Below, piece after piece: positions 8,373-61,903 of a stretch of 64,000 nucleotides of DNA. The notes under the pieces were generated by a model. The model did not search any database. It worked only from the letters and a program-made list of their open reading frames with translations, and had not been told where the DNA came from. Within the stretch, counting starts at the first letter, position 1. The number at the start of each line of letters is the position of its first letter. The translations under genes were made by a program, and so were the position numbers. The stretch comes from a virus. The DNA lies in IMG/VR virus record IMGVR_UViG_3300020429_000529, positions 390,762 through 454,761 of that record; one strand, given 5' to 3'.

Positions 8373-9380
8373 ATGGCCGACAACGGGATGCTGGTTTTTG
8401 CTGGCGAACACAGCAAAGTTTTGGGTCGTCGTATCTGCGACCATATGGGAATCGAGCTTGGTAAATCAGAGACCGAGTTCTTCCCTGATGGCGAAATCAT
8501 TGTTCGACTGAAAGAGGATGTTCGAGGTCGAGACTGCTACATCGTTGTCTCTACCTGCAATCCTGTCAATGACAACCTGATGGAGTTGTTGATCTATATC
8601 GATTGCCTGCGTCGAGCTTCGGCAAGGCAGATCGTTGCGGTCATTCCCTATTACGGCTATGGCCGACAGGATCGGAAAGACAAGGGTCGGGTTCCTATCA
8701 CGGCCAAGCTTGTTGCGAACCAGATTGTTTCAGCAGGCGCTCATCGGATACTCGCAATCGATTTCCATGCCGCTCAGATCCAGGGGTTCTTCGATATCCC
8801 TGTCGATCATCTGAGCGCAACGCCAGTATTCGTTGACTTCTTTGAAGAGCGTCGAGACGAGTGGGGAGATCTCTGCCTTGTTTCTCCTGATATCGGGAAT
8901 GTCAAGGTCGCTGAAGGTTTTGCCAACCTGCTTGATGCTGATATCGCCATCATTCACAAGAATCGCAAGAGCGCAACCAGCGTTGAGCCTCGTAAACTTG
9001 TTGGAGATGTTGAAGGCAAAACCGTACTCATGATGGATGACATGATTTCGACGGCAGGCACGATGCGTCGAGCCACGGATTTCGTCATGGAAAGAGGAGC
9101 GAAACAAGTCATCTGCGGCGCTACGCATGGACTCTTTGTTGATGGGGCAGAATCGAGACTGGCGGCAGCAGAGATCAGTCATGTTGCCGTAACGGACACG
9201 ATTCCCTATACTCCGCCGTCTTCACCTGAAGGCTCGGAGCATGCGTCTGATATACTGTGCTTCGCTGACAAGATGAACGTCCTTTCGGTCGCTCCGCTGC
9301 TCGGGGAGGCCATCATTAGAATCCATGACAGCCGCTCTGTAAGCGAACTGCTCAATAAGGGTGCTGGTCTAAAGAGATAG
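8373..9380 (+). CDS. prs: ribose-phosphate pyrophosphokinase (PRPP synthetase)
   Basis: MLVFAGEHS...GEIIVRL...YYGYGRQDRK...DLHA-like...VLMMDDMISTAGTM matches Prs over its full length. An alternative ATG lies at 8358. Confidence 0.85.
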   Translation: MADNGMLVFAGEHSKVLGRRICDHMGIELGKSETEFFPDGEIIVRLKEDVRGRDCYIVVSTCNPVNDNLMELLIYIDCLRRASARQIVAVIPYYGYGRQDRKDKGRVPITAKLVANQIVSAGAHRILAIDFHAAQIQGFFDIPVDHLSATPVFVDFFEERRDEWGDLCLVSPDIGNVKVAEGFANLLDADIAIIHKNRKSATSVEPRKLVGDVEGKTVLMMDDMISTAGTMRRATDFVMERGAKQVICGATHGLFVDGAESRLAAAEISHVAVTDTIPYTPPSSPEGSEHASDILCFADKMNVLSVAPLLGEAIIRIHDSRSVSELLNKGAGLKR

Positions 9381-12586: not shown

Positions 12587-13228
12587 ATGAAGCAGTATCC
12601 GTCCATCGTGGGATCAACGCAAGCCCCTCGGAAGCCTTGTATCGCCTTCCAGAAGCTCGACGGTAGCAATCTGCGCTTCGAATGGCAGCGGAAGACTGGT
12701 TGGCAGAAAAAGTACGGCTCTCGTCAGCGTCTCTTTGATGAGACCGATGAGATGCTCGGACCTTCTATTCCCATTTTCTACGAGACTCTGGCAGATCCGA
12801 TTGAGGCAATTATCCGCGGCGATAAATGGCTTCGACAGCAACAGCGAGTCACGGTGTTCGCTGAATTCTTTGGCCCAAAATCCTTTGCAGGAAATCACGA
12901 CCTGGAGCCTGGAAACGAACCTATGGAGCTTCGGCTCTTTGATGTTTGGGTTTATAAGTACGGGTTGATTGGGCCAAGAGACTTCATCAAGACGTTCGGT
13001 CATCTGCCGACGCCCGAAGTCGTTTACGAAGGCAATCTCAATGCAGAGTTCATTGCCGATGTCAAGGCTGGTCGCTACAATCTTGGCGACGGCATCGAGG
13101 AAGGCGTTGTTTGCAAGGGAGGCAAGGGAGGTCATCGAGACCTGTGGATGGCGAAGATCAAAACTGACGCCTACATCGCGAAACTCAAGGAAGTTTTTCG
13201 GGTTGGCTGGGAACAGTACGCTGAATAG
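12587..13228 (+). CDS. ATP-dependent RNA ligase (nucleotidyltransferase, KxDG motif)
   Basis: YPSI...KLDGSN is ligase motif I, followed by EFFG and KIK-type downstream motifs. About 213 aa, the size of minimal Rnl-family ligases. Confidence 0.65.
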   Translation: MKQYPSIVGSTQAPRKPCIAFQKLDGSNLRFEWQRKTGWQKKYGSRQRLFDETDEMLGPSIPIFYETLADPIEAIIRGDKWLRQQQRVTVFAEFFGPKSFAGNHDLEPGNEPMELRLFDVWVYKYGLIGPRDFIKTFGHLPTPEVVYEGNLNAEFIADVKAGRYNLGDGIEEGVVCKGGKGGHRDLWMAKIKTDAYIAKLKEVFRVGWEQYAE

Positions 13229-15699: not shown

Positions 15700-16035
15700 A
15701 TGAGCAACGCGCAAGACCTGACTTCTGAAACCCTTCCCGCAGCTATTGCTTCTGGCGTGGCTCTGGTTGACTTCTGGGCTACATGGTGCCCTCCATGTAA
15801 GATGCTGAGTCCCATCGTCGATGCGGTCGCTGCTGAGTTCGATGGAAACGACGGCGTAACCATCGCTAAGGTTGATGCTGATGCAGAGGCATCGCTTGTC
15901 AGCCAATACAGTGTTTCGGCTCTGCCGACCATTCTGATCTTCAAGGATGGGCAGATCGTTGAGCGTTTTGTTGGCCTCAGAGACCAGCAGTCTCTTGTTG
16001 ATGCTGTGAATAAGGCGTTGGGAGAATCTGATTGA
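15700..16035 (+). CDS. thioredoxin
   Basis: WATWCPPCKMLSPI active site (CPPC variant) within a Trx-fold-length protein. Confidence 0.8.
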   Translation: MSNAQDLTSETLPAAIASGVALVDFWATWCPPCKMLSPIVDAVAAEFDGNDGVTIAKVDADAEASLVSQYSVSALPTILIFKDGQIVERFVGLRDQQSLVDAVNKALGESD

Positions 16036-17015
16036 GTACGCCAAAGAGAGCGCATCTTCTTGTTGGGATGCAAGGCTCTGGTAAAAGCACCGTTGCAAAG
16101 GTCTTTGAGGGCGGCGGCTGGAAGGTTCTCAACAGAGACTCTATTGGCGGACGGTTGCCCGACCTGATTCCGCATATGGTCAGGATCCTTAAATCTGGCG
16201 AGGGCGTTGTTCTTGATAACACCTTCGTCAACAGAGAGGCAAGAGCCCCGTTTATCAAGGCAGCGAAAGAAGCAGGAGCAGAGGTCGTTTGCTCTGTTAT
16301 GCAGGCAACGATCGAAGAATGCCAATGGGCTGTTTGCCGTCGCATGATGGAGAAGTACGGCAGACTGTTGATGCCCGAAGATTTCAAGAATCTCAAGAAA
16401 GACCCGAGCGTCTTTCCTCCGATTGTCCAATACACCTTCCGAAACAACTACGAAGAGCCCGCGATCGATGAGGGCTTTGACCATATTGACTCTTGGCCCT
16501 TCTCAAGAGAAGTGCCTTGGGATTTCGAAGGCAAGGCATTGATCCTTGATTACGATGGGACTCTTCGGGTTACTAAGTCAGGCGCGAAATGGCCGACAAA
16601 CCCGGATGATGTTGAGATCATGGAGAATCGAGCAGAGGTTCTTCGTCGTTATCAGGATGAAGGATACCTGCTTCTTGGCGCAAGCAATCAGAGCGGAGTC
16701 TCTAAAGACAACCCCTCTCTTGATGTTTGTCAGAAATGCTTCGATCGGACCAATGAGCTTCTCGGTCTTGATATCGAAGTCTCGTTCTGTCCTCATAGGG
16801 CTGGCGTTCCTCAGTGCTATTGCCGGAAGCCTATGCCTGGTATGGGCGTCGAGATGGTATTCAAGCACAAGCTTGACCCGAAGAAATGCATCATGGTTGG
16901 AGACGCAAAGACCGACAAAACTTTCGCGGATCGTAATGGATTTCAGTTCCAATACGCAGATAAGTTCTTTGCATCGTCGGCCACTGACAGAAGCGACAGG
17001 ACAGTAAGCGTATGA
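16032..17015 (+). CDS. polynucleotide kinase-phosphatase (T4 Pnk-like: N-terminal P-loop 5'-kinase plus C-terminal HAD 3'-phosphatase)
   Basis: LVGMQGSGKST Walker A, then ILDYDGTL (DxDGT HAD motif I) and the downstream MVGDAKTD HAD motif. Confidence 0.8.
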   Translation: MSTPKRAHLLVGMQGSGKSTVAKVFEGGGWKVLNRDSIGGRLPDLIPHMVRILKSGEGVVLDNTFVNREARAPFIKAAKEAGAEVVCSVMQATIEECQWAVCRRMMEKYGRLLMPEDFKNLKKDPSVFPPIVQYTFRNNYEEPAIDEGFDHIDSWPFSREVPWDFEGKALILDYDGTLRVTKSGAKWPTNPDDVEIMENRAEVLRRYQDEGYLLLGASNQSGVSKDNPSLDVCQKCFDRTNELLGLDIEVSFCPHRAGVPQCYCRKPMPGMGVEMVFKHKLDPKKCIMVGDAKTDKTFADRNGFQFQYADKFFASSATDRSDRTVSV

Positions 17016-26602: not shown

Positions 26603-26930
26603 TGACAACTTGCCGCCATTCACCATCAACTGCAACGATATTGGCGAAGGTACATCTCTTGCAGTAGTTTGGAATATGTACCTGCGTACTCTTGCCATAC
26701 TAAATCAGACAAGCTCTGTTGAAATACCACCAGGTGAAGACGTAGCAGAGTATCTTACAGAGAAGGCGAGAACGATCCTCATCAAGTCTGCGAATATCGT
26801 CAAGGGCAACAGGGATGAGAATGCTCCATTGGACGAAGATTACCTGTTCGAGCATGCTCTGAAGAACTGCAGTTACATGCTTGAAAACATGACCGGCGAT
26901 CCGTATGAACGACTTAGCGATCAAGGTTGA
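26595..26930 (+). CDS. hypothetical protein
   Basis: ORF. Confidence 0.45.
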   Translation: MDDDNLPPFTINCNDIGEGTSLAVVWNMYLRTLAILNQTSSVEIPPGEDVAEYLTEKARTILIKSANIVKGNRDENAPLDEDYLFEHALKNCSYMLENMTGDPYERLSDQG

Positions 26931-27990
26931 TGCAAAGCAACTTGTCAAAACAGTCATTGAGCGATTCAAGAGACTCAATCCTGAACTGACTCGCACTATG
27001 GTTGCCTTGTCAGGCGGCGCAGATTCCGTTGCGCTCCTTTATTGCCTGTCTCGGATCAAAGAGCTTGATCTTTGCGCCGTTCACATCATGTATGATATTC
27101 GTCCCGAAGAACAAGCGGGTCGAGATCGACAGGTCGCAATTGAAGCCGCAACCAAATGCGATGTTGACATTTTGACCAAGCGCGTCAAGATGCAAGAATG
27201 GATGCAGGACAAAGGCGAGAAGAACCTCGAAGCAGCCGCAAGGAATGCTCGGTACTACTGGCTTGAGAATCTGTTTGATCTTCGGCTTTCTTCTGCGCCA
27301 AACCAGAACTTCATTCGCTACGAACATTTCAACCGCAATGAGGGCTATATCGCTACGGCTCATCATGCCGACGATCAGCTTGAGACTGTCCTTATGTTCC
27401 TGGTGCGAGGTACTGGTCTTCGAGGGATGGCTGGTATTGCTCCTAAGCAACAAATCAGAGGCAACGGCAAGACGCTTGTTCGCCCCATGCTGGATCTCAC
27501 GCATGAAGAGACGAAAGCCATCTGCGAGTATGCTGAACTGGATTGGGCTGAAGACGAGACGAATAACGATACGGATCTGACTCGCAATAAGATCAGGCAC
27601 GAAATCGTTCCTCGCATGAGAGAGATCAACCCGAAGGTTGCGCAGCATTTTGTCAACTCTGCTGATATTGCCAGAAGCGCTCTCGAAACAGTCGAAGACG
27701 CTTGCGCTCATCGCATCCGCCCTGAATGGGGGTTCTGCACGCCTGGCGTTCGAGTCTCAACGAACACCGATTCGCTGAGACTCGTTGAAGATGTAGTCAT
27801 CTACGAATGGCTTGGGACAGCCGTCCGTAGCATCACCGGCGGACGAGGACTTGATCGGGTGACAAAGAGGATGCTCGATGAAGTAACCTCTGCCATCCGA
27901 GATCGAAAGTACCGCAAGTTTGATTGGCCCGGCGTTGAGGTTCATGTCGGTCAAGAACGGGTAACAATCCAGAGAGCAAGTCAGAAATGA
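26905..27990 (+). CDS. tilS: tRNA(Ile)-lysidine synthetase-like PP-loop ATPase (TilS family)
   Basis: VALSGGADSVAL (SGGxDS PP-loop) and ATAHHADDQLETVLM (TilS signature). Confidence 0.7.
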   Translation: MNDLAIKVDAKQLVKTVIERFKRLNPELTRTMVALSGGADSVALLYCLSRIKELDLCAVHIMYDIRPEEQAGRDRQVAIEAATKCDVDILTKRVKMQEWMQDKGEKNLEAAARNARYYWLENLFDLRLSSAPNQNFIRYEHFNRNEGYIATAHHADDQLETVLMFLVRGTGLRGMAGIAPKQQIRGNGKTLVRPMLDLTHEETKAICEYAELDWAEDETNNDTDLTRNKIRHEIVPRMREINPKVAQHFVNSADIARSALETVEDACAHRIRPEWGFCTPGVRVSTNTDSLRLVEDVVIYEWLGTAVRSITGGRGLDRVTKRMLDEVTSAIRDRKYRKFDWPGVEVHVGQERVTIQRASQK

Positions 27991-28403
27991 ACGAACCCGA
28001 TTGGACAAAGGACACTCTTACCAATGGCGAGACGCTTGGTCCTGCGATGGAGATCGAGACTGAGGATGAGGCTCGCCAGTATCTCGACAACTATGTCGAT
28101 TGGATGGTCGTCAAGCACGGCATGTCCCGAGTCGAGGCTCTGAATGTCGCCAAGCAGAACATCGGCTACTATTCAGGCTACTATGGCGTTGATACGCAAC
28201 GTCGGGTTGAACGAGTCTTCAAGTGCGTGCATCCAATCTTCGGTTCAACGAGCGGCGAACAAATGAGCGTTCAGGAGATTCTTGAGCAAGGTCGAAAGAT
28301 GGGCGAGGAATCCAAAAAGGGCAAGGGTCTAAAGATGCCCCATGGTCAGCCTACTGGCGTTCCAACCAGAATGTCGAGAGGCGATTTCGTTGAGTTTGAC
28401 TAA
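27987..28403 (+). CDS. hypothetical protein
   Basis: ORF with ATGA junction. Confidence 0.5.
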   Translation: MNEPDWTKDTLTNGETLGPAMEIETEDEARQYLDNYVDWMVVKHGMSRVEALNVAKQNIGYYSGYYGVDTQRRVERVFKCVHPIFGSTSGEQMSVQEILEQGRKMGEESKKGKGLKMPHGQPTGVPTRMSRGDFVEFD

Positions 28404-29278
28404 TGACACAGGTTCATTGGCTTGTAGAAGACGGTCCTTTCGAAGAGGACATCGGCCCTCTGCTTGAGGAGATCAAGCGGCAAGGTCATCCATTGAGAAC
28501 GGTCAAGTACGAACCGTTCGAGAGCGGCAACTATCGGGATCTGTATCCCGAGAACGCATGCGTTGTCTTCTACGGATCGATCAACCTTGCGCAGCAGTTG
28601 CAGCGACAGACGCCTTGGGTTCCTGGCCCTCTCGTAACCTTCGACCACTACAAGTGTTCAACATATTTCGCGCATTGGGGAAAGCATCTTCTCAACTCCG
28701 AGTACCTGATGATGCCCTATGCAGAAGTATGCCGACGAAGGCACGAGATTTGCCGTCGCTTCGGTCATCTTGAGCCCGAGAAATCTTCGCTGTTCATTCG
28801 TCCCGACGATGGACGCAAGACGTTCGGCGGGCACGTTGCGTATGAGCATGACTTCGAGCGAATTGGCGGACCTGTTGGTCAGTATGCCCGTCCTGAAACG
28901 ATGGTTGTTGTCTCGTCTCCGAAGAACCTCTACTACGAATGGCGTATCATCGTCTGCGATGGCAAGGCCATTTCTGGCTGTCAATACAAGTGGGCTGACA
29001 AGCTGACTCTTGATCCCAAAGTACCTGATGCTGTTTGGGAGAAGGCAAACGAGGTGGCCTCTTGCGGTTGGCATCCTGATCGGATGTACGTTCTTGACAT
29101 CGCTAACTGGGGGCCAGGAGCTTATGGCGGTCATGACGGGTACTATGGTCAGATGTTCTTGATCGAGGCCAACTCTTTTGCCTGTTCGGGTTTCTACTGC
29201 TGCGATCCAGAGCCTATCGTCCGAGAGGCCTCAAGGGTCGCCCTTGAAGAATGGCAAGATATCTACGCCCCGATCTAA
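28403..29278 (+). CDS. ATP-grasp-like protein
   Basis: FIRPDDGRKTFGGHV ... YEWRIIVCDGKAISGCQYKW resemble ATP-grasp B and C domain motifs; weak. Confidence 0.4.
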   Translation: MTQVHWLVEDGPFEEDIGPLLEEIKRQGHPLRTVKYEPFESGNYRDLYPENACVVFYGSINLAQQLQRQTPWVPGPLVTFDHYKCSTYFAHWGKHLLNSEYLMMPYAEVCRRRHEICRRFGHLEPEKSSLFIRPDDGRKTFGGHVAYEHDFERIGGPVGQYARPETMVVVSSPKNLYYEWRIIVCDGKAISGCQYKWADKLTLDPKVPDAVWEKANEVASCGWHPDRMYVLDIANWGPGAYGGHDGYYGQMFLIEANSFACSGFYCCDPEPIVREASRVALEEWQDIYAPI

Positions 29279-29320: not shown

Positions 29321-30589
29321 ATGGGCGATACGAAGACATCTCGAATGGCGGTTCTGGATCAGAAGACCACGGGCGGCGTTCCGGTCAAGATCTGGGCAAC
29401 AGAAACCGATCCTGACACAGGAAAGTCATACCCGTCTGTCGATCAGAACACGATCCTGCAAGCGTCCATGGCGGCTCGTCTGCCATTCGCTTTCCGTCAT
29501 GTTGCTCTCATGCCCGATGCGCATGCTGGTTACGGTCTGCCCGTAGGCGGCGTTTTCGCGGCAAAGGGAGCAATCCTCCCCTACTTCGTGGGAGTTGATA
29601 TCGGATGCGGCATGTGCGTCCTCAACACCGAAGTTCCGATCGATCAGATCGATGTTCCGAAGCTCATGGAAGATTGGGGCGCATCGATACCTGTGGGTCA
29701 GTCTTCTCGCTCAAACAGCGATCTCTGGTTGAGCGAAGAGCATGTCAAGCGAACGGCTGACAAGTTCGAGGAAGATCACGGTAAGGTCGAAGACAAGCAC
29801 AACATCAAGCTGCCTGACCTCGCAAGAGCAAGGGTTCAGTTGGGTACGCTCGGAGGCGGCAACCACTTTGTTGAGTTGCAGGTCGATCCGAACGGCATCG
29901 CCCATATCATGATCCATAGCGGATCGAGGGGTTTTGGTGCGCGCACCTGCGAGATGTTCCATGACATCGCCCGCCGTCTCTGCCTTAGCTGGCATGTCAA
30001 GCTTGAGAGCGACAAGTGCGCATTCCTTCCGGTTGAAACGGACGAGGGGCAGGCGTACATCGATGCGATGCGACTTGCGCTCGACTATGCGTTCCAGAAT
30101 CGCTCAACGATGATGCGATGCGCTCGTCATGCGCTTGAGCAGCAGGTCGGACGAGTCGCCCCGCTCAAGGGGACGATCAACATCCACCACAACTACGCCG
30201 ACCTGGAAAACCACTTCGGCGAGAATGTTTGGGTGCATCGAAAGGGAGCTACGCTCGCTCGTCAGCAGACGACTGGCATCATTCCTGGTTCGATGTGCGC
30301 CAAGAGCTACATCGTCAAGGGCAAGGGCTCGAAGGATTCGTTCATGTCATGCTCGCATGGCGCGGGACGTAACTTCAGCCGTAGCGAGGCGAAGCGACAG
30401 GTCGCTGAGGGCGAAGTTCCTACTCAGAAGGCTCAGTTGCAGAGCGCGGGCGTTTCGGTCCATGGTGCTTCCGAGGTTCATGACGAACTCGGGCACGCCT
30501 ACAAGGACATTTCTGTTGTCATGGCAAACCAGTCGGACCTCATTGATATCCATGAGGAACTGACTCCTGTTGCTGTTCTCAAGGGGTAA
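29321..30589 (+). CDS. rtcB: RtcB-family RNA ligase (3'-phosphate/5'-OH)
   Basis: MPDAHAGYGLPVGGV, GVDIGCGM, LGTLGGGNHFVELQ, SCSHGAGR are all RtcB signature blocks. Confidence 0.85.
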   Translation: MGDTKTSRMAVLDQKTTGGVPVKIWATETDPDTGKSYPSVDQNTILQASMAARLPFAFRHVALMPDAHAGYGLPVGGVFAAKGAILPYFVGVDIGCGMCVLNTEVPIDQIDVPKLMEDWGASIPVGQSSRSNSDLWLSEEHVKRTADKFEEDHGKVEDKHNIKLPDLARARVQLGTLGGGNHFVELQVDPNGIAHIMIHSGSRGFGARTCEMFHDIARRLCLSWHVKLESDKCAFLPVETDEGQAYIDAMRLALDYAFQNRSTMMRCARHALEQQVGRVAPLKGTINIHHNYADLENHFGENVWVHRKGATLARQQTTGIIPGSMCAKSYIVKGKGSKDSFMSCSHGAGRNFSRSEAKRQVAEGEVPTQKAQLQSAGVSVHGASEVHDELGHAYKDISVVMANQSDLIDIHEELTPVAVLKG

Positions 30590-31393: not shown

Positions 31394-31966
31394 ATGACAG
31401 ATCAACAAGATGTCATGCGAATCCTTGACGGTCTTGACTGGGAACCCATTCGAGATATTCTCAAGGAAACAACCTGTCAGCTTCGTATCGGCGAACAGAT
31501 CGAAGAAAGCGACGGGGCAACGCATGTTTTCATGATGCCCTCTGTTGATGATGTCGCCAATCCTGATGAGTTCGATTTCATCGACCTGACTTTCATCTAT
31601 ATTGGCGTTCACAAGGAGAAGGCAGCGGAGGCTCGTCAGCGACTCGTTGAGCTACTTGCTCCGGGCGAAGAAGCATGGAAGCTTGGGCCGAGCTACATGC
31701 ATGTCGGAGCAGCGATTGGCGACCAGGGCGGCGCTCTGATGCTGTTCGCTCTCGGTCGAGCGTTGAATCTTTGGCAGATTCTTTCCCCGCAAACGATGAT
31801 GGGGCTATCGAGAGATCATCCTCTGTCTCAGCAGATGGCTGGTCAAGGGATGGTCAACATCCAAGGCTGGTTCCCTGATGGGAGCGCAGAACAAGAACCC
31901 AATCTGCCTGCCAATGTTGGGCATCGCACGGAGCAAGAACAAGATGATCGAGATCACGAAGGGTAA
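31394..31966 (+). CDS. hypothetical protein
   Basis: ORF. Confidence 0.5.
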   Translation: MTDQQDVMRILDGLDWEPIRDILKETTCQLRIGEQIEESDGATHVFMMPSVDDVANPDEFDFIDLTFIYIGVHKEKAAEARQRLVELLAPGEEAWKLGPSYMHVGAAIGDQGGALMLFALGRALNLWQILSPQTMMGLSRDHPLSQQMAGQGMVNIQGWFPDGSAEQEPNLPANVGHRTEQEQDDRDHEG

Positions 31967-32546
31967 GTTTCGGCGGCTGAATGAACCCATCAAGGGGAAG
32001 CCGAACTACCTGCGCATTGTTTCTGAGCGATTCGAGGTAGAAGAACCCGATGGGCCTGGTATCATCGGCCCTGCTGTTCGCGAGTTCATTCATACTCGCA
32101 ATGCTGTAGCGGTGCTGCCGATCTGCCCGTCTGAGCAGAAGATCCTGATCGCTCGGCAGTTCCGTATGCCCGTAATGCATGATACGGGAGATTACCAGCG
32201 AGCGTGGATCTACGAGGCTCTCGCTGGCGTTATCAGCGACGGCGAAGATCCGATCGATTGCGGCGTTCGGGAAACTTTGGAAGAATCGAGCGTCGTCGTT
32301 CTTCCTGAGAGAATGAAGTTGGTCGCCGATTACTATGTCTCGCCAGGAGTCTCCTCAGAGCGTCACTACGTCTTCACCTGCGAGGTTGACGCTGCGGAGC
32401 CCTCGGAGCCCTCTGGCGGTCTGGAAGAGGAACACGAGGCTCTCAAGCCTGCCTGGTTGACCTTCGATGAGATCCGAGCCCTGCGCTCGGGCGGCAGAAT
32501 CGAAGACGGCAAGACGATTATGGCCCTGATGTCTGCTGGGCTGTAA
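31944..32546 (+). CDS. Nudix hydrolase (ADP-ribose pyrophosphatase-like)
   Basis: Nudix box GVRETLEESSVVV; NudF-like overall layout. Confidence 0.65.
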   Translation: MIEITKGKFRRLNEPIKGKPNYLRIVSERFEVEEPDGPGIIGPAVREFIHTRNAVAVLPICPSEQKILIARQFRMPVMHDTGDYQRAWIYEALAGVISDGEDPIDCGVRETLEESSVVVLPERMKLVADYYVSPGVSSERHYVFTCEVDAAEPSEPSGGLEEEHEALKPAWLTFDEIRALRSGGRIEDGKTIMALMSAGL

Positions 32547-44687: not shown

Positions 44688-45407
44688 ATGGAAGAAGGCG
44701 CAGGTCGAAACAATCTACGAGACAAGTTCTACGGAATTATCAATGCCAATCTACCTCTGCAACGACAGAACTTTCATCCGTCGTTCTGGGAAACAATCGA
44801 AAAACGGTACGCAGACCCGACATGCGAAGGCGGGCAACGGCGATACCACACACTCGAACATGTTCTCGACTGCTGCCAAGTCCTCGACGAGTACCAGGCA
44901 GAAACAGATGAACTGAGCCGCGCCGAATACGAGCGCCTCTTCATCGCCCTTGTCTACCACGACATCGTGTACCATTCAGACGGCTCGGTCCATAACGAAC
45001 AGGAGTCTGCCCTTTTCGCGCAGAGAGAACTCTTCGCTATGGGCGTTTCGTACAACTTTGCCTCAGACGTTGGGCGTTTTGTCCTCGATACAGATCATAC
45101 CCGCCCGCTCCGAGATCATCATGCCGCCTCTGTCATCAGAGACATCGACTTCCACGGAATGGGTCTTAGCTATGAACTATTCAAGGGCAACGGCATCAGG
45201 ATCCAGGAAGAGTTCAACAATGTTGAAGAGAAAGACTTCATCATTGGCAGGTACTCTTTTCTCAACAGCGTAAGCAAGCTTTCGTCGATATACAAGGTAG
45301 ACTGGTTCCGACGCCGATACGAACGTCAGGCACGGAACAATATCAACAAGAGAATGAGCGAGCTTGCAATAGAAGCAAAGAAGCTCGGCTTCTCCTGCGA
45401 GAATTGA
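44688..45407 (+). CDS. HD-superfamily metal-dependent phosphohydrolase (COG4339-like)
   Basis: RYHTLEHVLDC ... LVYHDIVY (H...HD). Confidence 0.5.
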   Translation: MEEGAGRNNLRDKFYGIINANLPLQRQNFHPSFWETIEKRYADPTCEGGQRRYHTLEHVLDCCQVLDEYQAETDELSRAEYERLFIALVYHDIVYHSDGSVHNEQESALFAQRELFAMGVSYNFASDVGRFVLDTDHTRPLRDHHAASVIRDIDFHGMGLSYELFKGNGIRIQEEFNNVEEKDFIIGRYSFLNSVSKLSSIYKVDWFRRRYERQARNNINKRMSELAIEAKKLGFSCEN

Positions 45408-52059: not shown

Positions 52060-52416
52060 ATGAACATTTCGCGCACAAGACTAAACGCCCTCATCGCTCT
52101 CGGTAAACGAGAGGCAGAGATCGGTCAGACGCCCGGTACAGGAACGAGCGACCAGTACCTCATCTTCCCGGGCAAATACAACCAGCAACTCGAATGGGCC
52201 GCTCAAGAGGGTCTCTGTCATCGAGGCATGTGCGTGTTCGAGAGGAAGATGTCTACGCTGACTGCGGACGGCATGCACATGCTCAAACCTGCTTTCAACC
52301 TGACTCCCGATGGGGTCAGCGTTGCTGTTCATGGAGAGATCGGAAAGAAAGTCTCTGCCGCCGCCAGAGACAGAACATTCGGCAAGACAAAGAAGCAAGC
52401 GGCAAAGTCCGCCTAA
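52060..52416 (+). CDS. hypothetical protein
   Basis: ORF. Confidence 0.45.
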   Translation: MNISRTRLNALIALGKREAEIGQTPGTGTSDQYLIFPGKYNQQLEWAAQEGLCHRGMCVFERKMSTLTADGMHMLKPAFNLTPDGVSVAVHGEIGKKVSAAARDRTFGKTKKQAAKSA

Positions 52417-52430
52417 TCAAGAGGAAGCGA

Positions 52431-54393
<1,963 letters not shown>

Positions 54394-54394
<1 letters not shown>

Positions 54395-59776: not shown

Positions 59777-60652
59777 CACTGAATCAGATACCCCAACCCC
59801 CTCTTCCACTGAATCGGGAAATGCTGCAAAAACACTGGTAAACCTTGTAGCAAATCGTCTGACACTGAATGGCAAAACGAAATCAGGTTTACCAAAACGA
59901 AAATCGATAACACTGAATGGAATGACAAATGTTGTAAGATGCTGGGAAAAGTTGGAGATTCATGGGAATCTCTCCCACTCTGCCCCACTCTGCAACACTG
60001 GTAAATGTTACGGGAAGATTTGATATGGCTCATAAGCTGGAAGACTTGCAGACAGGATTCCCTTTTCTCCATGAAGGTCAGACATGGATGAAGCTGACAG
60101 ACGGTCCTGCGACCTGTCGAGCGACTCCTATCAACGGAGAGGGGAAGGGAGTCATCCATGCTCTGCCTGCAAACGAGATGGTCGAGATGGGCATCGGTCT
60201 GGACGACCTCGAACATGCTATCGAGGAGACCTACCAGAAGTTGCTGGCTGAGGGGACTGAGGACAGCACGGTCAACGAAAAGCATACATCGTTGATGAGG
60301 TTGCTCTCGATCGGAGCGGTCATCGAGAGAGTCGTCAGCATGGCTCAGAGGATCTCGGAGAATACGGCCCATATGGGGACGGAAAGCAGGAAAGAGTAGA
60401 TACTCTGATACTGCTCGTGTGCCGCGACATCTCTGACCTGAACTGTCTCTCCGAAACCTGAAACAAAAACAACTCAGGTTTGCTTTTCACCTGCTGACCT
60501 GGAATCGGCGTCTTGTGGCACTGAATGCCGATAAGCTGGTAGGAGGCACTGAATGAGAGTACGAGGCGTATACATCCGAGGTCACAAGTATCTGCCCGAT
60601 TTGCAGGTAAACTTTCAACAGTTCGATGGCACTGAATCGCATGGCACTGAAT
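59777..60652 (+). repeat. 8 same-strand copies of the octamer CACTGAAT (plus 2 copies of ACACTGGTAAA)
   Basis: Copies start at 59777, 59807, 59853, 59910, 60519, 60547, 60630 and 60645. The last four are GGCACTGAAT; one overlaps the SD/ATG of the ATPase and two lie inside its 5' coding region. Confidence 0.7.
60025..60399 (+). CDS. hypothetical protein
   Basis: ORF inside the motif-rich region. Confidence 0.45.
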   Translation: MAHKLEDLQTGFPFLHEGQTWMKLTDGPATCRATPINGEGKGVIHALPANEMVEMGIGLDDLEHAIEETYQKLLAEGTEDSTVNEKHTSLMRLLSIGAVIERVVSMAQRISENTAHMGTESRKE

Positions 60653-61227
60653 GGGTCACATCGATCCTCGGTCCCAATGGCTCTGGCAAATCGATCATCA
60701 GCCAAGCCATTGCCTGCGCCTTCGCTGGCTCAGTACGAGAGGAGGGCGCTCCTTGCACTGTTTCGGCTGACCTGGTACGAGTAGACTTCGAAGTAGACAA
60801 CGCTGTCATCGCTGCCCAATCCTTCCGAGGGAGGTTCGACAGACATAGCGCCATCGCCGCTCGCTTCGACTCGAAAGGTAAGCATGGCGTTATGATGTAC
60901 GACCGCAATCGGCTGGCGATGGACGTACCAGGAAACTATACAGGCCTCAAGGTCATAGTGCCTATCCTTGCTGACATCCATCTCCGTTCCTTGGAGGACA
61001 GCGTTGTCGTCATCGACGACTTCGACCTGGGGTTGGATGCTTCATTGCGCGGGAAGTTTTTCAAGCACCTTCGGTCTCATCTCCGTCCTCGGCGCAACCA
61101 GTTGATTCTGACTGCGCGGGAAAAGATAGGTGAGATGTATGAGGTGGTGTTGCCTGAGGGACGGGATGTCATGGAGGACGCGATGCGGGAGGTCAGTCTG
61201 CTGGGTAAGAGGCCTGCATCTTCTTGA
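60553..61227 (+). CDS. compact ABC-type / SMC-like ATPase (AAA_21/AAA_23-like)
   Basis: Walker A ILGPNGSGKS near the N-terminus; Walker B / D-loop VVVIDDFDLGLD. AGGAGG RBS with a 6-nt spacer. Confidence 0.65.
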   Translation: MRVRGVYIRGHKYLPDLQVNFQQFDGTESHGTEWVTSILGPNGSGKSIISQAIACAFAGSVREEGAPCTVSADLVRVDFEVDNAVIAAQSFRGRFDRHSAIAARFDSKGKHGVMMYDRNRLAMDVPGNYTGLKVIVPILADIHLRSLEDSVVVIDDFDLGLDASLRGKFFKHLRSHLRPRRNQLILTAREKIGEMYEVVLPEGRDVMEDAMREVSLLGKRPASS

Positions 61228-61903
61228 TGTCATCGATGTAGGGGAGCTTGAACTCATCCTCATGACGGATGATCTTGAACGGCAATCCCCAGTTCAGTCT
61301 GAAGACGTTCTCCGCCAAGCGAGCGACTCGGTTCGAGCCGTCTTGGAACGGCTTTATGCAGCAGAGCCTCAGATTGATCTCGTAGGCCTTCTCGACGAGC
61401 GCTTCGATGTCGTCTTCGTTGAGGAGATGCGGCTGTTCTATCTTTTCCCGATTGGCATCATGGAAGTTTGCGATGTTGAGCAGGAGGTCGTAGAGGTGTT
61501 GTTTGATGGAGTAGGGGTTGGGCATCTCTGTTTCTGAGACCCAGTGTCTTGCTTCGCGCCAGCGTCCGACATCTGATGGATGTATGACGTTTTGGTCTCC
61601 CATCATGTAGCCTTGTTCGGCGACGGACTTAAGCAGGTTTTTGTGAAGTTTTTTGAGCCAGTCGAACTGGTCCATGGCTGTGTAGATTTTGACATCTGCA
61701 GCAGATGGGATCAGGTCTGGATCTGCTGCGAGCGATTTGACCAGGTTGAGGCATTTGAGTTGGCCTTCCACGTGCGGGTGGATTTTGGAACCTGACATTG
61801 TATCATCCAGGTCTTTTTTGAAGAGCGGGATTCTCTCGATTCGGGTCGAGTGGAAGGCAAAGGCAACTTGGTGGTCTCTTGATGGATTTGGGAACCTGCG
61901 CAT
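61193..61903 (-). CDS. Fic/Doc-family-like protein with degenerate motif
   Basis: CIKPFQDGSNRVARLAE against Fic HPFx(D/E)GNGRxxR. P, F, D, G, R, R are conserved but the catalytic His is Lys. Confidence 0.5.
   Translation of the reverse strand: MRRFPNPSRDHQVAFAFHSTRIERIPLFKKDLDDTMSGSKIHPHVEGQLKCLNLVKSLAADPDLIPSAADVKIYTAMDQFDWLKKLHKNLLKSVAEQGYMMGDQNVIHPSDVGRWREARHWVSETEMPNPYSIKQHLYDLLLNIANFHDANREKIEQPHLLNEDDIEALVEKAYEINLRLCCIKPFQDGSNRVARLAENVFRLNWGLPFKIIRHEDEFKLPYIDDIKKMQASYPAD

Follow-up and report, generated by a model that had tools for sequence, protein, structure and literature searches.

The NAD+-salvage pathways characterized to date combine Adps with Namat (NARP1), Nampt with NMNAT (NARP2) or PnuC with NadR (NARP3) (bioRxiv 10.1101/2024.02.11.579819; PMC13464706). 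In NARP1, exemplified by phages Bas63, SpbetaL1 and SUSP2, Adps pyrophosphorylates ADP-ribose for Namat. The genes of Adps, which almost always adjoin a Namat gene, are routinely annotated as PRPP synthetase (Prs) genes (bioRxiv 10.1101/2024.02.11.579819), and the enzyme lacks the C-terminal module of PRPS, its PP loop being remodelled (PMC13586617). NARP2, represented by Nampt and NMNAT of Vibrio phage KVP40, consumes PRPP, and bifunctional NMNAT/Nudix forms are named in NCBIfam. The KVP40 NMNAT carries a Nudix ADP-ribose pyrophosphatase domain.

[quoted passage not shown] Guanine-linked ADP-ribose is hydrolyzed by all NADAR subtypes tested so far, E. coli YbiA included, and phage NADARs defeat DarTG1 (PMC11125620, PMC11825919). 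A further role, that of N-glycosidases acting on riboflavin intermediates, has been ascribed to E. coli YbiA-type NADARs, and E. coli YbiA does not rescue the toxicity of YarT in cells (PMC11125620). In a survey of the viral NAD+-ADP-ribose network, Iyer, Burroughs and Aravind (2022, PMC9503650) found phage NADAR, Nudix and DUF4326 proteins, all predicted ADP-ribose processors, to co-occur in large phages, with NADAR and Nudix often together among early, host-takeover and RNA-repair genes and DUF4326 phosphoesterases associated with NADAR.

Here, we describe a 64 kb stretch of DNA (the window) that encodes a Prs, a NudF-like Nudix hydrolase and a NADAR protein. All three open reading frames lie on the plus strand and match their families far beyond chance, as initially annotated. 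The window belongs to an element of ~498.6 kb, probably a huge phage that infects marine Planctomycetota (Phycisphaerae). On balance, we consider it somewhat more likely than not that these are three independent accessory genes of known kinds. The features relevant to the argument are the following.

1879..2880, plus strand: family 4 glycosyltransferase (GT4), head of a GT4-phosphoesterase-NADAR trio (Pfam Glyco_transf_4 and Glycos_transf_1; weak GT4-conflict match)
2877..3725, plus strand: LpxH-like calcineurin-type metallophosphoesterase, directly upstream of NADAR (Pfam Metallophos)
3679..4101, plus strand, most likely GTG start: YbiA-subfamily NADAR protein of ~140 aa (PF08719, TIGR02464, motifs)
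8373..9380, plus strand: Prs, class I ribose-phosphate pyrophosphokinase, 335 aa (Pfam, NCBIfam, structure alignment, motifs)
26905-27990: TilS (PP-loop), which together with RtcB defines the Nudix block (Pfam, 2.6e-43)
29321..30589, plus strand: RtcB RNA ligase, 1.35 kb upstream of the Nudix gene (Pfam RtcB, 1.1e-104)
31944..32546, plus strand: NudF/YffH/NudK-family Nudix hydrolase (ADP-sugar pyrophosphatase type), 200 aa (PF00293, motifs, fold)

The PRPP synthetase and its relation to Adps

The start of the Prs gene at 8373 agrees with the public 335-aa call (P0001), and the longest open reading frame begins at an alternative upstream start at 8358. The protein matches PF13793 (Pribosyltran_N, 1.7e-46) as well as PF14572 (Pribosyl_synth) and PF00156 (Pribosyltran), and scores above the cutoffs of both curated models, NCBIfam PRK01259 (NF002320; 378.6 bits, cutoff 297) and TIGR01251 (352 bits, cutoff 113). 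Its motifs are intact, namely the PRPS-type PP loop DFHAAQIQGFF, the flexible-loop Lys/Arg and the ribose-5-phosphate loop DDMISTAGT, and R98, D100, R101, H132, K196, R198, D222, D223 and T230 are invariant in the alignment. Solved PRPS structures align with it over the full length, C-terminal helices included. The domain order, the ATP/PP loop, the catalytic flexible-loop Lys/Arg, the ribose-5-phosphate loop and the C-terminal helices are all shared with bacterial class I Prs of E. coli (7xmu, 4s2u), B. subtilis (1dkr) and Phycisphaerales, from which the protein of the window differs in being encoded on a ~0.5 Mb phage-like element and in carrying an 11-residue insertion (PSSPEGSEHAS...) ahead of the C-terminal helices.

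Both this protein and Adps are annotated as Prs in phage genomes, and they have the PRPS fold and some catalytic residues in common. The Prs is matched by 467 phage records, about 430 of them in the weak, partial manner of Adps genes (24-30% identity, roughly residues 25-285), and in the SUSP2 record, the one inspected among these weak matches, the Prs-like gene adjoins a Namat-type gene; a further 36 phage matches are near full length, the seven seen being 37-47% identical. The window's protein, in contrast, is 25% identical to the Adps of SUSP2 and 60-63% identical to bacterial Prs (63% to those of two Planctomycetota/Phycisphaerales MAGs), with 61% identity to the copy in a 488 kb relative. 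It also retains the C-terminal alpha11-alpha12 module (the filament/regulatory region), its last ~50 residues aligning with Planctomycetota Prs and being absent from Adps. No Namat-like sequence was found in any frame of the window: the Namat of SUSP2 gave tblastn matches only at E >= 0.19 against all six frames, and Pfam searches returned no Nampt/Namat match anywhere in it. An Adps (NARP1) identity was accordingly rejected by alignment, profile scores and the missing Namat. While most phage genes labelled Prs are indeed Adps, the one considered here is not.

In a neighbor-joining tree, it groups apart from the cluster that bacterial chromosomal Prs form, as do the copies from related phage-like contigs. 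The protein is a canonical, Planctomycetota-type Prs that appears to have been inherited vertically within a phage lineage. Its gene is surrounded by genes of nucleotide metabolism (thioredoxin, NT5C, a MazG-like protein, two dCMP deaminases and P-loop kinases), and a plain supply of PRPP and nucleotides therefore explains its presence at least as well as any role in NAD+ metabolism. Microcystis phage MaAM05 was considered as a precedent for a phage Prs and dropped, the flanking dinB, trpG and gsiC genes looking cellular.

The NADAR protein, its upstream phosphoesterase and the Nudix hydrolase

The NADAR protein scores above the cutoffs of both PF08719 (1.4e-33, 116.9 bits, cutoff 35.1) and TIGR02464 (119.6 bits, cutoff 73.7), and its best solved relative is E. 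coli YbiA (2b3w, 3e-23). The start at ATG 3625 that had been proposed for it is possible and would give 158 aa, but homologues favor GTG 3679, which most likely is the start: the closest four of nine aligned homologues and two more begin with 'MI.FW', the equivalent of GTG 3679 here. Counted from this codon, the gene shares 47 nt with the end of the metallophosphoesterase gene that precedes it; counted from ATG 3625, it shares 101 nt. The public call (P0129; 102 aa, window 3793-4101) omits the conserved N-terminal third.

All invariant motifs of the family are kept (LSNF, TxEHYxQ, E126, D131 and WG), with E51, H52, E126, D131 and W134 invariant across ten aligned sequences, and the segment EIAEASPYDYIWG aligns with KLVEHTENDAYWG of YbiA. 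The subfamilies differ at one position of the last strand, where T4 gp30.3 has His and the DarT1-linked BC4488 NADARs have Asp (PMC11125620); this protein has Glu there, which by the rule given in the same study assigns it to the YbiA subfamily. A DarT1-linked antitoxin of the BC4488 type is ruled out by this Glu, and the DS32_2 anti-phage NADAR by a score of 76.5 bits against NF053876 (cutoff 240). The protein shares the YbiA fold family and the LSNF, EHYxQ and E...D..WG motifs with E. coli YbiA, T4 AdfN (gp30.3) and DarG1-type NADARs. Like T4 AdfN, it is a stand-alone, phage-encoded 'orphan'. It lacks a DarT partner, Pfam searches of the window having returned neither an ART nor a DarT domain, and is preceded by an LpxH-like phosphoesterase.

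For this phosphoesterase, LpxH proteins are the sole solved relatives (~1e-8), and its score against NCBIfam LpxH (PRK05340) is 61.9 bits, with a cutoff of 134. Its equation with the ADPR-1''-phosphate phosphatase of extended NARP1 was dropped, the latter being a Macro-domain protein (bioRxiv 10.64898/2026.01.28.702374). The order GT4-phosphoesterase-NADAR recurs in two related contigs, L004 and L022, whose syntenic GT4 copies are 48-50% identical to that of the window, and in two others, L020 and L021, a DUF4326 gene takes the place of the LpxH-like gene. A phosphoesterase of one or the other family thus lies directly upstream of NADAR in all five related genomes examined, and this constant pairing, with a family that varies, is a small hint that NADARs have a phosphatase or pyrophosphatase partner. 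Compared with the network of Iyer, Burroughs and Aravind, the locus has an LpxH-like metallophosphoesterase in the position of DUF4326 and a canonical Prs in the same conserved block.

The coordinates of the Nudix gene agree with the public 200-aa call (P0121). The Nudix box whose presence the initial annotation had made the test of its assignment is found on alignment, as G95-x5-E-x7-R109-E110-T-x-E113-E114-x-S-V, with Ser in place of the final Gly but no change to the glutamates or the arginine. The protein matches PF00293 (1.6e-12), scores 72.7 bits against TIGR00052, just below the cutoff of 79.55, and 62 bits against NudF PRK10729 (cutoff 248); all 78 of its nearest homologues match both TIGR00052 and PRK10729 at E <= 1e-5. 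It keeps 17 of the 17 invariant or near-invariant family positions, including E110/E113/E114, S133-P134-G135 and E163/E165. Among the 78 nearest homologues, S133-P134-G135, E139, E163 and E165, all present here, are invariant or nearly so; they include the SPG motif and the ExE catalytic loop (E162/E164 in E. coli NudF).

By sequence, the best solved matches of the Nudix protein are the ADP-ribose pyrophosphatases of E. coli and Klebsiella, and its AlphaFold model (pLDDT 94, pTM 0.88) is closest in the PDB to NudF (TM 0.83, rmsd 1.9 A, 188 columns), followed by NudK. It shares the two-domain fold, the Nudix-box glutamates, SPG and ExE with E. coli and Klebsiella NudF and with NudK (YffH), but is only ~25% identical to them. 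The GDP-mannose hydrolase NudK matches almost as well as NudF, and this, together with the score below the TIGR00052 cutoff, makes the substrate uncertain: neither sequence nor fold tells an enzyme specific for ADP-ribose from one specific for GDP-mannose or other NDP-sugars. The clade of the protein is divergent and small, comprising about ten 50%-identity clusters, and the protein is not obviously either of the dominant phage Nudix types, T4 NudE and the NadM-fused form, as these are described (PMC9503650). Relatives of this clade were not detected in IMG/VR, the 488 kb relative included, with single-sequence and alignment-derived patterns, and conservation of the trio as a set is therefore not supported.

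Gene arrangement, NAD+-forming genes and the host element

The three genes, identified by their families and intact catalytic motifs, are dispersed, with starts near 3.7, 8.4 and 31.9 kb, and form no cluster or operon; NADAR and Prs are separated by ~4.3 kb, and another 23 kb separate them from the Nudix gene, whose neighbors are RtcB and TilS. They fall in two separate conserved blocks. The order of NADAR and Prs is kept in three related contigs (L004, L020 and L022) and that of RtcB and Nudix in a fourth, L023, which reads MTase-AAA_28-dCMP deaminase-TilS-x-RtcB-x-Nudix-Band_7-HA. A scan for promoters and terminators around NADAR-Prs gave counts no different from those in shuffled sequence. 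The joint presence of Prs, Nudix and NADAR is statistically unremarkable. A counter-defense role related to ADP-ribose or NAD, as initially proposed for the combination, is reasonable for NADAR and Nudix. The three genes are not co-located and show no sign of co-regulation.

All 115 plus-strand open reading frames of the window (in concatenated chunks) and two long minus-strand ones were searched against Pfam, and Namat and the adenylyltransferase-like proteins of the relatives served as tblastn queries against the window. The 64 kb window and its flanks of ~8 kb upstream and ~10 kb downstream (together ~82 kb of ~498.6 kb) yielded no Nampt/Namat, NMNAT, NadR or PnuC. NAD+ re-synthesis therefore cannot be shown for these ~82 kb, and on the evidence available the set of three genes cannot rebuild NAD+ by itself. 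The initial description of Prs with Nudix as the classic NAD+-salvage toolkit is imprecise in light of the pathways listed above: compared with NARP2, the window has stand-alone enzymes for both side reactions (PRPP supply and a Nudix ADP-ribose pyrophosphatase), but the NAD+-forming enzymes that define NARP2 and NARP3 were not found in the ~82 kb.

Among the relatives, L020 has a gene 1.7 kb downstream of its Prs whose product joins an APS-kinase-like domain to a NadM-like adenylyltransferase domain; tblastn found no homologue of this fusion in the window. An 85-aa CTP_transf_like gene of L022, likewise without a tblastn homologue in the window, was rejected as an NMNAT, its GSFDPITNGH motif resembling that of pantetheine-phosphate adenylyltransferase. 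The AAA_28 protein of the window (24690-25367), the counterpart of which in a relative lies beside an MTase and a dCMP deaminase, was considered as a NadR-type ribosylnicotinamide kinase; this is unsupported, no NCBIfam or solved-structure match being found.

The ~498.6 kb element has been assembled repeatedly from ocean metagenomes, for example as ENA ERZ17089788 NODE_1289088 and TARA_SAMEA2622934 scaffold_2. Its Prs protein is present on 11 contigs of 0.2-1 Mb (~498.55-498.62 kb where the length is given), and the break points of two of them differ, which suggests a complete, circular or permuted genome. Nearly all genes share one strand, and a 488 kb IMG/VR contig that is syntenic with it keeps both Prs and NADAR. 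No viral hallmark gene was identified within the 64 kb window by Pfam searches and a PHROGs scan, the latter returning no virion gene among ten open reading frames, nine of them Pfam-negative; the label 'phage' is thus based on how the genome is built and on the relative being an IMG/VR record. Among cellular Prs, those of Phycisphaerales/Planctomycetota come nearest (59-63% identity), and the host is likely a marine planctomycete of the Phycisphaerae.

Possible roles of the three genes

For substrates, expression timing and cooperation among the three proteins, we infer the following. Prs would produce PRPP from ribose-5-phosphate and ATP, supporting nucleotide synthesis for the copying of a very large genome and any PRPP-dependent NAD salvage. 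The Nudix hydrolase most likely would cleave free ADP-ribose, perhaps along with related ADP-sugars, to give AMP and ribose-5-phosphate, which would remove a product of NAD-cleaving defenses and yield the substrate of Prs. NADAR most likely would strip ADP-ribose from bases (guanine-type) on phage nucleic acid; alternatively, it may process soluble ADP-ribose derivatives, perhaps together with the upstream phosphoesterase.

The initial annotation combined the three genes into an NAD+-salvage and counter-defense set. In one coordinated system of this kind, ADP-ribose released by NADase defenses or NADAR would pass through Nudix to ribose-5-phosphate and through Prs to PRPP, and Nampt and NMNAT encoded elsewhere in the 498 kb genome would rebuild NAD+ in a NARP2-like manner. 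The reactions do connect chemically, NARP2 is PRPP-dependent (bioRxiv 10.64898/2026.01.28.702374), NADAR genes adjoin NadV/NadM in some phages (PMC9503650), L020 encodes its NadM-like fusion near Prs, and ~416 kb of the genome beyond the ~82 kb inspected could accommodate the required genes. We nevertheless regard such a system as possible but unlikely: the inspected ~82 kb contain none of the NAD+-forming genes, the L020 fusion has no counterpart in the window, the genes lie in two different conserved blocks 23 kb apart, and the Nudix is undetected in IMG/VR, which includes the 488 kb relative that keeps Prs and NADAR.

Similarly doubtful is pure metabolic housekeeping with no link to defense, with Prs providing nucleotide precursors, Nudix acting as a house-cleaning or NudK/YffH-type NDP-sugar hydrolase, and NADAR as a YbiA-type N-glycosidase disposing of reactive metabolites from the riboflavin pathway or similar ones. 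The nucleotide-metabolism genes around Prs, the near-equal NudK match of Nudix and the name of the TIGR02464 model whose cutoff NADAR exceeds ('riboflavin biosynthesis intermediates N-glycosidase') are consistent with it. However, no riboflavin-pathway genes were seen in the window, the activity of every NADAR subtype tested so far on guanine-linked ADP-ribose (PMC11125620) points elsewhere, and so does the phosphoesterase that precedes NADAR in five of five related genomes, DUF4326 being a predicted processor of ADP-ribose phosphate (PMC9503650).

We consider it distinctly improbable that, in this lineage of huge phages with planctomycete hosts, the NudF-type Nudix and the true Prs form an 'ADP-ribose to PRPP' recycling shunt while NADAR and the phosphoesterase (LpxH-like or DUF4326) constitute a two-enzyme eraser of base ADP-ribosylation. 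If true, the shunt would turn the debris of NAD-cleaving immunity into a precursor of nucleotides and NAD, by a route distinct from NARP1, NARP2 and NARP3.

Still less probable is a function of NADAR and Nudix in clearing ADP-ribose derivatives produced by NAD-dependent RNA end-healing, beside RtcB, RNA ligase, kinase-phosphatase and TilS. A link between NADAR and RNA repair has been suggested (PMC9503650), RNA-repair genes are abundant in the window, and two genomes show Nudix in synteny with RtcB and TilS; against this, Pfam searches found no KptA/Tpt1, 2H or Macro domain in the window. Neither RtcB nor kinase-phosphatase-ligase repair is known to consume NAD+ or to give off ADP-ribose derivatives. 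A NARP1-type reconstitution, with the 'Prs' really being Adps, has a negligible probability and is already effectively refuted by the sequence comparisons described above.

The reading that we favor is that Prs, Nudix and NADAR are three separate, already familiar kinds of accessory genes that form no linked NAD-salvage system. As such, the window is one more example of a catalogued pattern, large phages with ADP-ribose-processing genes, and opens no new question. Since the description of NARP1, phage 'Prs' labels tend to be read as Adps; as this lineage shows, some huge phages carry a genuine PRPP synthetase instead, which is useful to know for annotation and for understanding how half-megabase phages feed their replication.

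Identity of the Prs protein

The initial annotation joined three plus-strand genes, a PRPP synthetase (Prs), a Nudix hydrolase and a NADAR protein, into a counter-defence or NAD+-salvage set, in which Prs and the Nudix hydrolase were called the classic phage NAD+-salvage toolkit. The family assignment of Prs holds: the ORF at 8358/8373-9380 has matches to three Pfam models, Pribosyltran_N (1.7e-46), Pribosyl_synth and Pribosyltran. On NCBIfam PRK01259, with a cutoff of 297, it reaches 378.6 bits, and when started at 8373 it has the coordinates of the public gene call P0001 (335 aa). Its description as part of a classic toolkit is imprecise: the “Prs” gene of the phage Prs-Nampt operon proved to encode Adps, which pyrophosphorylates ADP-ribose for Namat in the pathway NARP1 (bioRxiv 10.1101/2024.02.11.579819), and the window protein is unlike Adps on every count. 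It can be aligned over its whole length with PRPS of known structure from bacteria and human, and shares 63% identity with two Planctomycetota/Phycisphaerales Prs versus 25% with Adps of phage SUSP2. DFHAAQIQGFF, the flexible-loop Lys/Arg, DDMISTAGT and the C-terminal module are intact, whereas the PP loop of Adps is remodelled and its C-terminal end has no alpha11-alpha12 module (PMC13586617). Tblastn with SUSP2 Namat revealed no Namat-like sequence in any frame of the window. The identity to Adps, the PRPS motifs, the C-terminal module, the PRK01259 score and the lack of Namat together effectively rule out Adps. Judged from its sequence, the window Prs is a true PRPP synthetase, which is the chief correction to the initial annotation.

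The INPHARED matches to Prs fall cleanly into two groups, one of 36 near-full-length matches (37-47% identity in the seven inspected), many of which are unannotated contig-level records, and one of about 430 Adps-like matches with 24-30% identity over roughly residues 25-285. In a quick neighbor-joining tree with no bootstrap support and a long-branch root, the Prs copies from phage-like contigs (the window, its 488 kb IMG/VR relative L004, the related contigs L020 and L022, and others) lie outside the bacterial chromosomal cluster. The base composition of the gene is like that of its surroundings. The tree suggests that Prs was acquired once, long ago, and has since been inherited vertically. 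An 11-residue insertion (PSSPEGSEHAS...) precedes the C-terminal helices (window 9200-9250, residues ~277-292); it is partly common to L004 and absent from bacterial Prs. One gene adjoins Prs in the window and does not adjoin it in the relatives:

7848-8357, ECF-type sigma factor with regions 2 and 4, ending one base before the longest Prs ORF

The Nudix hydrolase and the NADAR protein

The Nudix assignment was borne out. The ORF at 31878/31944-32546, identical from 31944 to the public call P0121 (200 aa), matches NUDIX (1.6e-12) and retains every invariant or near-invariant position of its family, including the Nudix-box glutamates, S-P-G and E163/E165, the latter aligned to the catalytic loop of E. 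coli NudF. Of 5.8 billion proteins, a word-based search picked out only three relatives; an exhaustive HMMER search reached about ten near clusters at 50% identity and, beyond them, the broad NudF/YffH/NudK family. The ADP-ribose diphosphatase model and TIGR00052 both pick up all 78 nearest homologues, the window protein itself scoring 72.7 bits on TIGR00052, slightly below the cutoff of 79.55. Its AlphaFold model (pLDDT 94) superimposes on Klebsiella and E. coli NudF with TM 0.83 and 1.9 A, NudK being next. Membership of the NudF/YffH/NudK family is thus solid, and the likeliest predicted substrate is ADP-ribose, with GDP-mannose or another NDP-sugar as alternatives. The clade was not detected in IMG/VR, L004 included. 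The gene lies 1.35 kb 3' of RtcB; in the related contig L023, the order is MTase, AAA_28, dCMP deaminase, TilS, x, RtcB, x, Nudix, Band_7, HA.

The ORF ending at 4101 likewise aligns with its profiles, passing the cutoffs of both Pfam NADAR (1.4e-33) and TIGR02464. The public call P0129 (102 aa, 3793-4101) is almost certainly too short on sequence grounds because it drops the conserved N-terminal third with the LSNF and EHYYQ motifs, which the in-frame sequence upstream of 3793 encodes. The ATG at 3625 chosen in the initial annotation is possible; the probable start is the GTG at 3679, corresponding to the “MI.FW” start found in the four closest of nine aligned homologues and in two more. Whichever start is used, the gene shares 47-101 nt with the end of the upstream metallophosphoesterase gene. 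Among solved structures E. coli YbiA comes closest, and all residues invariant among the aligned homologues are present. At the position where Asp marks DarT1-linked NADARs and His marks T4 gp30.3/AdfN (PMC11125620), the window protein has Glu and is therefore YbiA-type; it is far under the cutoff of the model for the anti-phage NADAR DS32_2. In vitro, every NADAR subtype tested, YbiA included, hydrolyses ADP-ribose linked to guanine; DarTG1 can be neutralised by phage NADARs, and phages have acquired NADARs several times (PMC11543638, PMC11125620, PMC11825919).

Each of the five related genomes examined has a phosphoesterase gene directly 5' of NADAR, and two unrelated families fill this place. 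The window (2877-3725), L004 and L022 have an LpxH-like metallophosphoesterase, with an 86-aa ORF between the two genes in L022; L020 and the related contig L021 have DUF4326. The stretches concerned in the relatives are L020 563-1368, L021 1234-2039 and L022 8090-9594. DUF4326, often found as a fusion with NADAR, has a predicted role in processing the terminal phosphates of ADP-ribose derivatives (PMC9503650). This exchange of families is the most suggestive contextual signal found, and is still context.

Linkage of the three genes and NAD+-forming genes

The three ORFs of the initial annotation are thus confirmed as real and correctly assigned, all belonging to already known kinds. Its interpretation is only partly supported, since the genes are not one physical unit and no NAD+-forming enzyme was found in the window or its flanks (~8 kb upstream, ~10 kb downstream). 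The gap between NADAR and Prs is about 4.3 kb, holding genes for a membrane protein, a Clp_N protein, a truncated HisRS-like protein, a pilin-like protein, several unknown ORFs and the ECF sigma factor; Nudix lies 23 kb further on. The order NADAR then Prs is common to three relatives, where the two genes stand about 4-10 kb apart with variable filling; ordinary synteny within the family suffices as an explanation. Co-occurrence of NADAR and Nudix above chance has been reported, the usual setting being early, host-takeover and RNA-repair genes (PMC9503650). One gene of the interval has a counterpart, 60% identical, between NADAR and Prs in L020 (3312-4067):

5353-6066, truncated histidyl-tRNA-synthetase-like core, 237 aa (hisS model 143.7 bits, cutoff 286.75; HisZ models also match)

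HisZ is a regulator of a PRPP-using enzyme; no HisG was seen.

About a quarter of gut jumbo phages are reported to carry NAD synthesis genes (PMC11662467). Pfam searches of all window ORFs revealed no Nampt, NMNAT, NadR, PnuC, Macro, SLOG, 2H, KptA, Sir2 or ART domains. NadV/NMNAT-like genes, to be sought outside the window, were absent from ~8 kb upstream and ~10 kb downstream, which added only HD_4, AAA_25 and HATPase proteins and another metallophosphoesterase. L020 encodes, 1.7 kb 3' of its Prs, a 312-aa fusion (7789-8727) of adenylylsulfate-kinase-like and NadM/archaeal-NMNAT-like adenylyltransferase domains (50.9 bits, cutoff 127), of which tblastn found no homologue in the window. AAA_28, the family that includes the ribosylnicotinamide kinase domain of NadR, has a member in the window:

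24690-25367, AAA_28 P-loop protein (Pfam 1.4e-14)

This protein has no NCBIfam or solved-structure match. Its gene adjoins MazG-like and dCMP deaminase genes, and the order MTase-AAA_28-deaminase is kept in L023.

The element and the predicted roles of the enzymes

In ocean metagenome assemblies, 11 contigs of 0.2-1 Mb encode the identical Prs protein, those with a stated size measuring about 498.55-498.62 kb. Two long contigs open at different points, with Prs at ~345 kb in one and 1.7 kb from an end in the other, the pattern expected of a complete circular or circularly permuted genome, which it suggests for the 498.6 kb element. By arithmetic, the window occupies approximately positions 337,022-401,021 of a 498,610 bp ENA contig. 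It has 52.6% G+C, is tiled almost without gaps by 115 plus-strand ORFs and contains no tRNA genes. L004 is syntenic with it (GT4 glycosyltransferase, metallophosphoesterase, NADAR, then Prs, thioredoxin, RNA ligase; 46-67% amino acid identity); L020/L021, L022 and L023 were reached via homologues. Pfam scans of the ORFs and a PHROGs scan of ten ORFs picked up no capsid, portal or terminase gene in the window, so the label “huge phage” derives from genome architecture and the IMG/VR status of the relative. A Planctomycetota host would fit the closest cellular Prs (Phycisphaerales/Planctomycetota) and the pilin-type N-methylation motif, ECF sigma factor and HA domain encoded in the window. The sign of the GC skew flips around 56-60 kb. 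Further features are:

75-1859, large protein with many repeated helix-turn-helix-like units, extending upstream of the window (1055 aa in the public call; HTH_28, sigma-70 region-4-like and PHROG “D5-like transcriptional regulator” matches), immediately 5' of the GT4 gene
44688-45407, 239-aa protein without Pfam match (PHROG 19425 “phosphohydrolase”, 2.9e-28; HD-like H...HD pattern by eye)
52194-52733 and 52772-54394, GroES and GroEL homologues; a 541-aa opposite-strand ORF (52754-54379) spanning nearly the same stretch as GroEL is probably non-coding
61193-61903, minus strand, Fic/DOC-domain ORF, the sole one of the few minus-strand public calls with a Pfam match, converging on an AAA/SMC-like ATPase gene (60553-61227, plus strand)

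A dense RNA-repair/tRNA toolkit (12587-13228, 16032-17015, 26905-27990, 28403-29278, 29321-30589) comprises an RNA ligase (PF09414), a kinase and HAD-phosphatase protein resembling polynucleotide kinase-phosphatase, the tRNA-Ile lysidine synthetase TilS, an R2K-type ATP-grasp protein and RtcB, with the TilS-RtcB order shared with L023. It suggests defence against anticodon nucleases.

By family and context, NADAR may take ADP-ribose off bases or process ADP-ribose derivatives, possibly together with the adjacent phosphoesterase. The Nudix hydrolase, by family, would convert ADP-ribose to AMP and ribose-5-phosphate, and Prs would convert ribose-5-phosphate and ATP to PRPP. The set would not remake NAD+, as the required enzymes were found neither in the window nor in its flanks; the chain from ADP-ribose through ribose-5-phosphate to PRPP is chemically feasible for Nudix and Prs. 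The PRPP made by Prs would supply nucleotide synthesis for a very large genome, a role that fits its neighborhood of thioredoxin, NT5C, MazG-like, dCMP deaminase and kinase genes.
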